A stretch of DNA of 36,154 nt from the IMG/VR virus record IMGVR_UViG_2778261278_000009; one strand, written 5' to 3'. Below are positions 6,001 through 12,000 of the stretch, piece by piece; the stretch's first letter is position 1; each line of letters begins with the position of its first letter. The position numbers were made by a program. This DNA is from a virus. Taxonomy: Duplodnaviria > Heunggongvirae > Uroviricota > Caudoviricetes.

Positions 6001-9000
6001 ATCCGGCATGTACAGGATTCATTGTCCTGCTCAAAGTCCATGCCATCAAACTGCTGGTTTTCATTGATGATGCGGGACCAGCCATCAACGCCCACCACCG
6101 GAACAATGCCGTTCTGCTTATCAGGGAAGGCGTAAATTTCTTTCGTCCACGGATTAAGGCCGTACTGGTTGGCGACGATCAGCAATGCGATGAACTGCGC
6201 ATCGCTGGCATCACCTTTAAATGCCGTCTGGCGAAGAGTGGTGATCAGTTCCTGTGGGTCGACAGAATCCATGCCGACACGTTCAGCCAGCTTCCCTGCC
6301 AGCGTTGCGAGTGCTGTACTCATCCGTTTTATACCTCTGAATCAATATCAACCTGGTGGTGAGCAATGGTTTCAACCATGTACCGGATGTGTTCTGCCAT
6401 GCGCTCCTGAAACTCAACATCGTCATCAAACGCACGGGTAATGGCTTTTTTGCTGGCCCCGTGGCGTTGCAAATGATCGATGCATAGCGATTCAAACAGG
6501 TGCTGGGGCAGGCCTTTTTCCATGTCGTCTGCCAGTTCTGCCTCTTTCTCTTCACGGGCGATCTGCTGGTAGTGACGCGCCCAGCTCTGAGCCTCAAGAC
6601 GATCCTGAATGTAATAAGCGTTCATGGCTGACCTCCTGAAAATGGCTGTGAAAATATCGCCCGCGAAATGCCAGGCTGATTAGGAAAACAGGAAAGGGGA
6701 TTAGTGATTCAGGCCGTTACCGCGTCCGTCGAGAAAAACTTCCACGAGCAAATCACGGGTATAAGTGCGCTCGATGCCGCGATGCAGATAAAGCCGTCCG
6801 CGTAAATTAGCTGATGCAGTCCAGGTACCATCTTTGTGTTTGACCAGCATTCCTGGCATGACCGCACCTCGATTAACGGTCTGCGTTCCATAATGTTGAT
6901 GAACCATAAAAACTCCTGCCCGTAAGCTGGGCTGCTGAACATATAGAGACTTCTGCGCGTATTCAGGCGGTGGATGGCCGCCGGTTGTCATAACTAAGCC
7001 GCCTCGTTGAAGCGACTAAGGTATGAAATGTTGAGTTAATTTCAGCTGGTCACACCGACGTTCACGCGTCCGTTTCACCCCTCGCACTCCCCGAAGCCTG
7101 CTGAAATTCAAACTGCGGATCTAAGCGGTCATCGCAACGGTGAATCAGGTAGTTGCCGTATCGTTGTGTTGTTGCGATGAACTTATTTAAAACTATAGTT
7201 GTTTTATTGGTTGTTTTAGATATAACTGGTTGTATTTAGGATGGATTTATTTTGTGACTTGAATCGCATAGCGATAACTGAAGCGAGGTTATGGTGGTTT
7301 TTTTAACGGTGTGTGATGAGGGGAGGGCAAAAGAAAACCCGGCACGGTGACCGGGATTCTTACGCCGTTAGGTAAAGATATTATTGCGGTGGCTTAATAT
7401 TACTACCTAGAGCAAAGATAGGAATTAGTTCTTTACTGAATGAGCACAATGCCCAGTTGATAATTTTTAATTGGTACTACCCATGCTTCCTATATGTCTG
7501 CGGCATGCTCCCAATAACCTTACCGAAGATGAACACCCGGTTCATCTCGTCTTTCTCGATCGGGTCCCACGGTGAGTAGCTTTTGTTATCAGAGATGACC
7601 AGCAGCTTATCCTTCATCATTTGCAGGCGCTTTACATGGGCTGTGTCGTCGTACAGAAACGCATAGATACCATCACCGTCGAAAGATTTAACTGTGATAT
7701 CAACGAACAGCAGATCACCTGGTTCGATCGTTCCTGACATGCTGTCACCACGCACGTTAATGATGCGGATATTTTCCGCCTTCCTACCATCGAACATGTG
7801 ACGAGCATCGTCAAACGAGTACTCAACCGAGCGTAGAACTTCTACAAACTCACGGTTGATGACTCCCGGCCCAGCACTGACTTCTATATCAAGAACGTCA
7901 ATCTTGAAGTATTTGGAATGGCTGACAGTTGATTGTATTGGTTGCACTGTACTGTCTGACATATTTCCAACGCCAGAAGATAACCATTCTGCGCGCACAC
8001 CCAAAGCGTTCGCGATCTCCACGATTTTAGTTGTTTGATTAGCTTTCCCTGTTTCGATTTTCTGAATAGCAGCCTGGCTAACCCCGACCAAATCCCCAAG
8101 CGCCTTTTGTGTAAGGCCTCGCGCTAATCTGGCTTCTTTAAGTCTTTCTGAGAGTGTTGTTTTCATATTCCAAATGTACAACCAAGGTTTTATTCCATCA
8201 AACGAAAATGGTTGTTGACTAAAAACAACCATAGTTTTAATCTTGATTCAAATTAACCACGGAGGTTGTTATGAACCCAGCTATCAAAACAGCGATCAAT
8301 ATCGTTGGTTCACAAAAGAAACTGGGCGCTGCTTGCGAAGTTTCACAGCAGGCCGTCTATAAGTGGCTTCACAACAAAGCAAAGGTATCCCCTGAACATG
8401 TCGGCAGCATTGTTACGGCTACTGGTGGAGTAGTGAAGGCATACCAGATTCGCCCGGATCTTCCGAAGTTGTTTCCACACACCGAAAAGAACGCAGCTTA
8501 AATTTCCATTTCACGCTCTTTAACAATAAGCAATCAACTTAACAGTCAATTCAAACTAAAGGAGTCAATTATGCAACCACTTACATACCAACAGACTAGC
8601 GGATTTAGCCCGACTGCGGTGATAAATCGTTCTCAAACAAAACAGGTGCCAGGCCACGAAAAAATCCGTGATGCCGTCCGCGCCTGGTCGGCTGTAGATA
8701 ATCAGGATGTCGTTGCCACACTCATTGTGAATGAGTATCGGGAGCAGGGCGGCGGCACCATCGATTTCCCTGATGATGTCAGCCGTGCACGCCAGAAGCT
8801 GTTCCGCTTCCTCGATAACAAATTCGATTCTGAAAAATACCGAAATAACGTGCGTGAACTGACCCCGGCAATTCTGGCGGTACTACCGCTGGAATATCGC
8901 GGTTACCTGGTTGAGCAGGATAGCTTCATGGCTAGGTTGGCTGAAATGGAAAAGGAACTCAGTGAGGCAAAACAGGCTGTCATTCTCAACGCACCACGCC

Positions 9001-12000
9001 ACCAGAAACTGAAGGAAATTAGTGAAGGTATTGTGTCGATGTTTCGTGTGGACCCAGATCTGGCTGGTCCATTGATGGCGATGGTTACTACCATGCTGGG
9101 GGCGGTATGACAGGTTCAGAAATGGCGAAAGCCGGTCTGCTGGAACAGAACCGACTTTCAGGTGCAAATCGTAACACACTCATTGCGGGAGGAATTATGG
9201 CAAACACTGCTGAGATATTCAATTTTCCAGTGCCGGATGCGGCACAAAAGGAGCCGCGCGTGGCAGATCTCGATGATGGTTATACGCGCATTGCAAATGA
9301 GTTGCTGGAAGCTGTGATGCTGGCCGGATTAACACAGCACCAGCTTCTGGTCTTCCTGGCTGTCATGCGCAAAACATATGGCTTTAATAAAAAACTGGAT
9401 TGGGTGAGCAACGAGCAACTGTCCGAATTGACCGGGATATTGCCGCACAAGTGTTCTGCTGCAAAAAGTGTTCTGGTAAAGCGTGGGATTTTGATTCAGA
9501 GCGGGCGGAATATCGGTATTAATAATGTGGTCAGTGAATGGTCAACATTACCCGAATCAGGTAAGAAAAATAAAGTTTACCTGAAAGAGGTAAATATACC
9601 TGAATCAGGTAAGAAAAGTTTACCCAAATCAGGTAAAGGCGTTTACCCGAATCAGGTAAACACAAAAGACAAACTAACAAAAGACAATATAAAACCTTTT
9701 TCGTCCGAGAATTCTGGCGAATCCTCTGACCAGCCAGAAAACGATCTTCCTGTGGTGAAACCGGATGCTGCAATTCAGAGCGGCAGCAAGTGGGGGACAG
9801 CAGAAGACCTGACCGCCGCAGAGTGGATGTTTGACATGGTGAAGACTATCGCACCATCAGCCAGAAAACCGAATTTTGCTGGGTGGGCTAACGATATCCG
9901 CCTGATGCGTGAACGTGACGGACGTAACCACCGCGACATGTGCGTGCTGTTCCGCTGGGCATGCCAGGACAACTTCTGGTCCGGTAACGTGCTAAGTCCG
10001 GCCAAACTCCGCGACAAGTGGACCCAACTCGAAATCAACCGTAACAAGCAACAGGCAGGCATGATAGCCAGCAAACCAAAACTCGACCTGACAAACACTG
10101 ACTGGATTTACGGGGTGGATTTATGAAAAACATCGCCGCACAGATGGTTAACTTTGACCGTGAGCAGATGCGTCGGATCGCCAACAACATGCCGGAACAG
10201 TACGACGAAAAGCCGCAGGTACAGCAGGTAGCGCAGATCATCAACGGTGTGTTCAGCCAGTTACTGGCAACTTTCCCGGCGAGCCTGGCTAACCGTGACC
10301 AGAATGAACTGAACGAAATCCGCCGCCAGTGGGTGCTGGCTTTCCGGGAAAACGGGATCACCACAATGGAACAGGTTAACGCTGGAATGCGCGTAGCCCG
10401 TCGGCAGAATCGACCATTCCTGCCATCACCCGGGCAGTTTGTCGCCTGGTGCCGGGAAGAAGCATCCGTTACCGCCGGGCTGCCAAACGCCAGCGAGCTG
10501 GTTGATATGGTTTACGAGTATTGCCGGAAGCGCGGGCTGTATCCGGATGCAGAGTCTTATCCGTGGAAATCAAACGCGCACTACTGGCTGGTTACCAACC
10601 TGTATCAGAACATGCGGGCCAATGCGTTGACTGACGCGGAATTACGGCGCAAGGCTGCCGATGAACTGTCCTGTATGACCGCACGAATTAACCGTGGTGA
10701 GGCTATACCTGAACCAGTAAAACAACTTCCTGTCATGGGCGGTAGACCTCTAAATCGTGCACAGGCTCTGGCGAAGATCGCAGAAATCAAAGCTAAGTTT
10801 GGGCTGAAAGGAGCAAGGGTATGACGGGCAAAGAGGCAATTATTCATTACCTGGGGACTCATAAGAAATTCTGTGCGCAGGACGTTGCCGCGGTAACAGG
10901 CGCAACGGTAACCAGCATAAATCAGGCTGCGGCTAAAATGGCACGGGCAGGTCTTCTGGTTATCGAAGGTAAGGTCTGGCGAACGGTGTATTACCGGTTT
11001 GCTACCAGAGAAGAACGGGAAGGAAAGGTGAGCACGAATCTGATTTTTAAGGAGTGTCGCCAGAGTGCCGCGATGAAACGGGTGTTGGCGGTATATGGGA
11101 GGACTACAGCATAAGCATAACTTATGGATTATATGGAAAACTGGTAATTATGCTCTTTTCTTATGAAAATAAAGAGAAGTTTTCGCTGGCGTTTTATTTG
11201 TTCTGTTTTTTCTTGCGGGTTATTCTGATTTCTTTTGATTTGATTTTTTCTGACAAAAGTAGGGAAAAAATATGTCGCAAGTACTTTCTGTCTTTACCTC
11301 CTAAATTACATTCTCTATCAAATGTTGCCATAGTTATGACCCCAGTTTTATATAGTGTTTCAGCAATTTTTCTGTAGTTTTTTTCTCGCAAAATTGAAGA
11401 GTTTTTCTTTGCTGTATTTTCAAGGCTATCTCCTTGTGGTTTAAGACTATTTGGGCCAAAAAACGTTGTGGATACTGCTGCACTTGTTGTCCGTTTTTTT
11501 TGGCCCATTTGGATAGTACTTGGGAGAGGCATGATTTTAATACGCATATAAATAACTCCTCTATCAATTGGATTTTGGGAAAATGTTAACATTAATCATG
11601 ATTAAGGAGTAATTTTAAATCTTCCAATAAAATTTGTTTAAACTCTTGTGTTCTATGATCGATATACAACGCAAGTTTGCTTGCATTATCTTCCAGGTCA
11701 CGTATCTCTCTGTCACCTCGAATAAACCCAACTAAATTTAAACGTTTAGATAGTTCAGAACTTCCTTCTATGGCATCTTGGAGTATTTGAATGATTTCTG
11801 AATTCATTGAGCGCCCGTTTCGTTTGGCTCGTTCAGCTATAGCTTCACGCATCCCATCAGGGAAACGGAGGTTAAACTTATCGTAGTCTTTTACTTGTTT
11901 GTCAGCCATTGGAACCCCCAAAAAAATGAATGGTGCCATATTGCCACATCAATTCAATGGTGGCATTATGGCCTCATGGTGTCATTGTGGCCTCATGAGG

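Follow-up and report, generated by a model that had tools for sequence, protein, structure and literature searches.

A phi80-type CII of the YdaT family in the cII position of a lambda-like phage genome, and a possible second target in front of ninB...Q

In CP-933P, YdaS and YdaT are analogues of Cro and CII and do not form a toxin-antitoxin (TA) pair; YdaT is non-toxic and turns on an otherwise silent leftward promoter, pRE933P, between ydaS and ydaT (PMC8630535). The protein is a tetramer with POU-like helix-turn-helix (HTH) domains on a four-helix bundle, and its footprint comprises TTGATT-N6-AATCAA together with weaker flanking sites (PMC9986795). YdaT of Rac binds a box, ATGATT-N6-AATCAA, that straddles the ydaT start codon, as well as the racR-ydaS intergenic region, and activates a reverse promoter inside ydaS ~29-fold from a distance of ~190 bp; the two proteins are 30% identical, and each binds the other's box (PMC11879457). 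Here we describe a relative of both that occupies the cII position of a phage genome (Caudoviricetes; IMG/VR record IMGVR_UViG_2778261278_000009) and is the orthologue of the phi80 cII product. The window referred to below is the whole stretch of 36,154 nt, and coordinates are those of this stretch unless another sequence is named.

A preliminary description of this DNA, made from the sequence alone, had noted a gene twice the size of lambda cII between cro and O, and had suggested a Rac-type YdaS/YdaT switch from an S24-type CI and a YdaS-like Cro. The open reading frame (ORF) of 179 amino acids (aa) is present exactly as described, with a strong Shine-Dalgarno sequence, and its product is 1.85 times the length of lambda CII (97 aa). 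The window has the divergent gene order cI (leftward), cro, cII, O and P, in which the switch is made up of the following elements.

8571..9110, + strand: cII-position gene, phi80-type CII of the YdaT family, 179 aa, ATG start (ORF call, profile searches)
8559..8564, + strand: Shine-Dalgarno AAGGAG, 6 nt before the cII ATG (sequence inspection)
8271..8501, + strand: cro, 76 aa, YdaS-type HTH, first gene of the rightward pR operon (Pfam)
7477..8232, - strand: cI repressor ORF, HTH_3 and Peptidase_S24 domains, 251 aa as listed (Pfam)

The partners of the gene are as had been proposed, CI carrying a Peptidase_S24 domain and Cro matching the Pfam family YdaS_toxin (E=4e-17) and, more weakly, P22_Cro (E=8e-5). 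Among the window proteins, O and P were likewise recognised by Pfam (Phage_rep_O, E=1.6e-34; P, E=8e-62).

Profile searches place the 179-aa protein firmly in the YdaT family. Pfam YdaT_toxin (PF06254) was matched at E=8.5e-30, the score of 103.5 bits standing well above the cut-off, 21; the match runs over residues 67-154 and takes in positions 1-90 of the 92 in the profile. PHROG 163, "CII-like transcriptional activator", was matched by residues 17-178 at E=5e-67. Neither the lambda family Phage_CII nor CP76, the phage 186 CII family, gave a Pfam match at E<=1, and the suggestion of a Rac-type switch is borne out. Direct comparison with lambda CII gave no detectable similarity (BLASTP E=0.38; hhalign probability 0.2%), and the statement that the two are unrelated thus holds at the level of sequence.

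The homologues carry two kinds of names. In the Escherichia phage PhiR34_1, the annotated cII is 99.4% identical, and the same DNA, 99.9% identical, is annotated cI/Cro/cII/O. About 15 other coliphage records label the homologous gene cII or CII-like. The phi80 cII product is 65.6% identical across 100% of its length (tblastn), while genes annotated cII in mEp237, HK639 and HK225, together with an unnamed CobraSix homologue, are 52-73% identical (tblastn). More than 700 homologues are found in enterobacterial prophages, many of them named "toxin YdaT domain-containing protein" or "regulator"; the NCBI and Pfam names agree with the earlier remark that such proteins are at times annotated as toxins. 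We regard both the family membership and the phi80 orthology as established. The protein is classed as a phi80-type CII because its orthology to phi80 is full-length, terminal extensions included, and because an oop/M3-like RNA lies downstream. The cII-position gene is therefore an already catalogued phi80 CII/YdaT-family regulator, of a known and already annotated kind. In this respect the preliminary description, which left the role unclear, can be amended: the gene has a phi80 cII orthologue, PHROGs and GenBank call it CII-like, and two relatives have been shown to be CII analogues (PMC8630535, PMC9986795, PMC11879457).

The fold agrees with this assignment. Searched against the Protein Data Bank (PDB), the family profile found 8bt1 (CP-933P YdaT; E=1e-12) and 3c4r (an E. 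coli O6 homologue; E=1.4e-11). An AlphaFold2 model from a shallow alignment (64-98% identity) reached a pLDDT of only 57 and could not be used, but after Rac-type sequences had been added to the alignment the mean pLDDT was 78, with ~90 in the HTH domain. The sole Foldseek hits of this model in the PDB were the same two structures, both at probability 1.00 and with TM scores of 0.67-0.70 over ~120 residues, the remainder being noise; the model superimposes on the whole of each solved structure. A fold search of BFVD with the model gave nothing meaningful.

The predicted POU-like HTH domain extends over residues 29-113, with helices at 29-43, 45-58, 70-82, 88-104 and 107-113. The loop between alpha2 and alpha3 that precedes the recognition helix has 11 residues (59-69) in the model, a long loop as in CP-933P YdaT and within the range of 9-23 residues in the YdaT family (PMC9986795). 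The recognition helix 70-82, SRARQKLFRFLDN, is identical in phi80 CII and close to that of CP-933P YdaT, ARNTQKIFRWLDK. It contains R79, which corresponds to R57 of Rac YdaT and is invariant among 10 diverse members (32-73% identity); the next residue is F80, with W in other members. In the Rac protein, the H56A/R57A exchange abolishes DNA binding (PMC11879457). Helix 119-138 of the model aligns with the tetramerising alpha6, within the structural match; the model is a monomer, and two extra helices may alter the assembly.

These extra helices, 143-160 and 162-177, are confidently predicted and form most of a C-terminal extension of ~35 aa (residues 143-179, DNA 8997-9107), which ends in a hydrophobic tail, GPLMAMVTTMLGAV. 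At the other end, residues 1-24 are predicted to be disordered, and an N-terminal extension of ~25-28 aa (DNA 8571-8654) is conserved in the phi80-type subfamily. Both extensions are common to this subfamily and absent from the solved YdaT proteins; the C-terminal one is lacking in the YdaT of Rac as well as in that of CP-933P. They may serve proteolytic control or additional oligomerisation.

Among the known systems closest to that of the window is the one of phi80. The CII of phi80 (PHI80_49, 180 aa) has the same extensions and the same recognition helix, its gene lies, in the gene order of the window, between cro and the oop-like M3 RNA and replication genes, and a box of the same type is found upstream of its ybcN/ninB homologue. 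The phi80 cI/cro immunity module is a different one, and the replication genes of the window are of the lambda O/P type. CP-933P YdaT, which likewise follows a YdaS-type cro, is only ~26% identical and lacks the ~25 N-terminal residues and helices 143-177 of the window protein; its repressor is PaaR2 with an attached TA pair, in place of the S24 CI of the window. Rac YdaT (140-141 aa) is ~32% identical over the HTH domain, but RacR is not of the S24 type, and the Rac protein activates the host gene rcsA and is toxic on overexpression. With lambda CII the protein shares gene position, an oop-type antisense RNA on the 3' side and probably, by homology, a tetrameric HTH arrangement, an analogy argued in PMC11879457, and it probably does the same job, activating leftward cI transcription as an early and unstable protein. 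The means differ: lambda CII uses direct repeats, TTGC-N6-TTGC, that flank the -35, whereas YdaT proteins use inverted repeats and are able to act at a distance.

Possible DNA targets were sought around cro and cII. The elements found there are listed below.

8208-8232, cI-cro region: operator-type inverted repeat ATGGTTGTT/AACAACCAT, with related copies nearby
8243..8260: near-box TTGATTcaaattAACCAC, left half-site perfect, right half-site with 2 mismatches, between the putative pR -10 and the cro Shine-Dalgarno sequence
8520..8537: near-box TTAACAataagcAATCAA, right half-site perfect, in the cro-cII spacer
8619..8636: near-box GTGATAaatcgtTCTCAA, in cII codons 17-22
8568..8573, - strand: candidate -10, CATAAT, of a leftward, activator-dependent pRE-like promoter, over the cII ATG (relaxed promoter scan)

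The inverted repeat and its copies are probably the CI/Cro operators, and their motif is clearly distinct from the YdaT box. The true start of cI is likely to be M23 at 8166 and not the first codon of the ORF; with this start the cI-cro intergenic region measures 104 nt. The three near-boxes have 2 core mismatches each, and three in 8243-8636 compares with ~0.23 expected. Across the whole window near-boxes are not enriched (17 against 21 expected), and the sites at 1877, 4963 and 6328 were therefore taken as chance. Rac also has sites both in its repressor-cro intergenic region and near the 5' end of the gene, where the window has near-boxes. The near-box in codons 17-22 lies just 5' of the HTH-coding part, a position resembling that of the Rac box at the ydaT start, and mEp237 has ATGATAaatcgcAATCAA at this position, which differs from the Rac YdaT box by 1 mismatch. 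The alternative, 4A7-type immunity region has a perfect box, TTGATAatgacaAATCAA, across the cro start codon, the ATG falling inside the box spacer, at -264 relative to cII; this box is present in L036 and ~35 other loci and mirrors the Rac box across the ydaT start codon.

At the cro-cII junction itself a canonical YdaT box is absent from the window, the best match having 3 mismatches to the 12-nt box, whereas CP-933P has a perfect box at its ydaS-ydaT junction and the window only imperfect ones. The cro-cII spacer (69 nt, AT-rich) is unrelated to those of phi80, HK639 and HK225 in alignment, but partial conservation is seen over the first ~60 nt of cII. A sigma-70 scan of the junction found no leftward promoter, and a relaxed scan gave only the CATAAT over the cII ATG. 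This hexamer lacks a usable -35 (GTCTGT), a lambda-pRE-like arrangement, and is a weak candidate for the -10 of a pRE-like leftward promoter. A scan for 6-N(4-8)-6 palindromes in the cro-cII regions of 10 phages, which recovered the Rac box as a control, revealed no palindrome that the phi80-type phages have in common at one position. A direct repeat, AGTCAATT, occurring twice (8544 and 8563), was dropped as it is absent from relatives with other junctions.

On the 3' side of cII, the O ORF as called mechanically begins at 9107, in overlap with the stop codon of cII. In an alignment with five other phages, however, the conserved start with its Shine-Dalgarno sequence lies at 9199, which leaves a cII-O spacer of 88 nt. 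This spacer is homologous to the region of the phi80 M3 (oop-like) RNA and contains one further unit.

9117..9222, - strand: oop-like (phi80 M3-like) antisense RNA unit in the cII-O spacer (alignment, promoter scan, covariation)

Its promoter, TTGAAT-17-CATAAT with a TG element, lies at 9222..9194 on the - strand, over the O start, and its terminator hairpin (9126-9160, 8/15 pairs covarying) is followed by a T-rich tail. Searches of Rfam gave nothing in 7000-10500 at E<=1 and nothing in the whole window at gathering thresholds, so that neither this RNA nor the leader hairpin described next is in Rfam.

The only perfect YdaT box of the window lies 5.5 kb downstream of cII, in front of the genes ninB...Q; 0.006 perfect 12-nt boxes are expected per window.

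14137..14154: sole perfect YdaT box, TTGATTttccatAATCAA; a conserved rightward promoter in front of ninB/ybcN has the left half-site as its -35
14160..14165, + strand: -10 hexamer CATAAT, 17 nt after the TTGATT -35
14169..14197, + strand: leader hairpin with the conserved loop CCTGAACAAC and a covarying stem, also in L011, L012, L013, L015, L100, L104 and L107

The phage 82 record X92588 annotates a putative promoter here, upstream of orf33/orf151 (ybcN/ninB type), and the hairpin as a "possible regulator-binding site". The hairpin loop is invariant, while the phi80 stem has a completely different sequence; there is no U-tract and hence no obvious terminator. In mEp237 a box with 1 mismatch, lacking a -10, directly abuts the hairpin. 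Upstream, an AT-rich 195-aa ORF (13547-14134) ends 2 nt before the box; it has no Pfam or PADLOC match, is absent here in related phages, and is probably a moron or accessory gene.

Among ~31 distinct versions of the promoter a consistent pattern is seen: both half-sites and the -10 are conserved, free variation occurs in the 6-nt spacer of the box and in the 5 nt that follow it, and the upstream flank is unrelated; the half-sites are kept across at least 25 spacer variants. In phi80 and HK225 the box is TTGATAaaacacTATCAA, TTGATA-N6-TATCAA in place of TTGATT/AATCAA in the window, both half-sites having changed symmetrically. Although shared ancestry confounds the comparison and kinship inflates it, 80 viral contigs with phi80-type CII contain 87 perfect core boxes in 1.22 Mb (~1 expected), all at the nin or cro position, whereas 80 contigs with lambda-type cII contain 4 boxes in 1.13 Mb, with the leader in only 4 contigs. 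The nin box is present in 41/47 phi80-type loci with at least 9 kb of downstream sequence. Where the promoter module stands beside a lambda-type cII, the box is intact in 4/9 cases, and in 3 the right half-site has been lost while TTGA and the -10 remain, showing that the right half-site is not needed by the nin promoter itself. The YdaT literature that we consulted does not mention a nin-region box, and this box is the only element described here that might be new.

Taken together, the data make it probable that the product is a CII-type lysogeny-establishment regulator of the phi80/YdaT family, and not of the lambda CII family, which would act as follows. CII would be made early from pR, after cro, and would by homology form a tetramer of POU-like HTH domains on a helical bundle. 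The phi80-type subfamily is expected to recognise inverted repeats of the TTGATT-N6-AATCAA type, through helix 70-82 and R79. The sites of CII in the immunity region would be the three imperfect boxes found from pR to the 5' end of cII, and from there it would activate an otherwise silent leftward promoter reading antisense through cro into cI, as its CP-933P and Rac relatives do; pR might be damped by CII as well. The oop-like antisense RNA just downstream probably limits CII expression. CII would also bind the perfect box over the -35 of the nin promoter, where occlusion or a roadblock would hold back late-gene activation. The same end would thus be reached as with lambda CII, by another route: lambda restrains Q through the antisense promoter paQ, while the window box lies on the sense promoter upstream of ninB...Q. 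That phi80-type CII has this second target, a perfect operator at the ninB...Q entry at which transcription toward the antiterminator Q is shut off or roadblocked, is a more tentative proposal, with chances that we put rather short of even.

Several observations weigh against this scheme. The biochemically studied YdaT members are only ~26-33% identical to the window protein, and the DNA target of phi80 CII was not found in the literature searched; that literature, which did not extend to the original phi80 genetics papers, gave nothing specific on phi80 cII/pRE or on the ybcN/phage 82 promoter. No perfect YdaT box lies near cII in the window or in phi80, and the candidate leftward -10 (8573..8568) is not conserved in phi80. 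As to the nin box, the link with CII consists of motif identity and co-occurrence; the right half-site is lost in one YdaT-type prophage (L105).

A very different role, that of toxin (or antitoxin partner) in a prophage TA pair with YdaS, is suggested by the names of both Pfam families and by the NCBI labels of many homologues, and prolonged overexpression of Rac YdaT does lead to filamentation and death (PMC11879457). That toxicity arises indirectly, because YdaT activates the transcription of rcsA (PMC11879457), and in CP-933P the non-toxic YdaT and its partner were shown not to be a TA module; the literature on the relatives altogether counts against a TA role (PMC8630535, PMC5917428). The predicted fold consists of a DNA-binding HTH domain and an oligomerisation helix and shows no features of an enzyme or a membrane toxin, no PADLOC defence-system model is matched by the protein, and the gene sits in the cII slot of intact plaque-forming phages, phi80 among them. 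We therefore reject the toxin role, which appears largely refuted and is highly improbable for this gene, and "toxin" would seem to be a misnomer. Less improbable, though still unlikely, is that the protein is a YdaT-family regulator whose main action, at pR/cro and at the nin promoter, is that of a repressor or roadblock, which would delay lytic growth in place of activating a pRE-like cI promoter. The only perfect boxes in phi80-type phages overlap the nin -35 or the cro start after pR, positions typical of repression, and the cro-cII junction yielded no leftward promoter that was both convincing and conserved. Set against this, phi80 cII, so annotated in the records, was named for the cII class of genes, those of lysogeny establishment. 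Rac YdaT also covers the -35 and -10 of PydaST, as a repressor might, but both studied relatives activate leftward transcription of the repressor gene (PMC8630535, PMC11879457), and Rac YdaT does so from ~190 bp away, so that the position of the boxes is compatible with activation (PMC11879457).

For the nin box alone, the chances are close to even that TTGATT-N6-AATCAA is unrelated to CII. It would then be a -35 hexamer followed by the spacer of a promoter, situated at a recombination boundary, or be bound by a different factor, from host or phage, and would co-occur with phi80-type CII by linkage. Homology to other phages begins exactly at the box, as at a mosaic boundary, and the left half-site is constrained in any case as a -35 hexamer. 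An intact box is also kept in DLP12-like remnants without any cII and in some phages with lambda-type cII, and is absent from the distant YdaT-type phages Rac-SA53 and pAEv1818. The half-sites resemble those of FNR, TTGAT/ATCAA, but FNR sites are spaced by N4 and not, as here, by N8. It also speaks against mere linkage that the right half-site is conserved inside a promoter spacer, where sigma-70 needs no set sequence, while the neighbouring 6 nt and 5 nt vary; that phi80 and HK225 have changed both half-sites symmetrically; and that promoters without the right half-site keep TTGAT and CATAAT and stand mostly beside lambda-type cII. Moreover, the 12-nt match to the sole published operator of the YdaT family is exact, and the CI/Cro operators of the window have a different motif.

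The finding as first written changes very little. What it confirms is that, throughout one branch of the lambda-like coliphages, lysis or lysogeny is decided with a phi80/YdaT-type CII and not with the textbook lambda CII, and it shows that the Pfam/NCBI "toxin" label, which is still spreading, misleads annotation. The ninB...Q box is a useful by-product, as it offers a concrete hypothesis of how these phages couple the lysogeny decision to late-gene control, and suggests a defined DNA target for this subfamily, the operator of which is so far unmapped. If CII does act there, this would be a mechanistically distinct answer to the task that lambda solves with the CII-activated antisense promoter paQ.

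A box of this type is also found in E. coli chromosomes. In the sequences L096/L097 (DLP12-like locus at ~0.56 Mb) a perfect box, TTGATTttgggaAATCAA, lies at 9819-9836, 182 nt upstream of ybcN, and these defective prophages have no cII of either type within 10 kb. In K-12-like strains this box could be a cross-talk site for Rac YdaT.

Other genes of the window include an Arc-like ribbon-helix-helix gene (11592..11939, - strand; Pfam Arc, E=6e-20), which adjoins a gene for a protein with BRO-N and P22 antirepressor C-terminal domains (12157..12906, + strand). The segment 11592-12906 looks like an insertion into the nin region of an Arc/Ant antirepressor module in the style of P22 immI, and an orphan ORF of 132 aa (11194..11592, - strand) has the same orientation as arc. 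In the leftward early arm, a 414-aa protein with a PAPS-reductase domain (3465-4709, - strand) shows similarity in PADLOC to SspD, BrxP and DndC, with E down to 6e-19, and possibly has a DNA-modification or anti-defence function.

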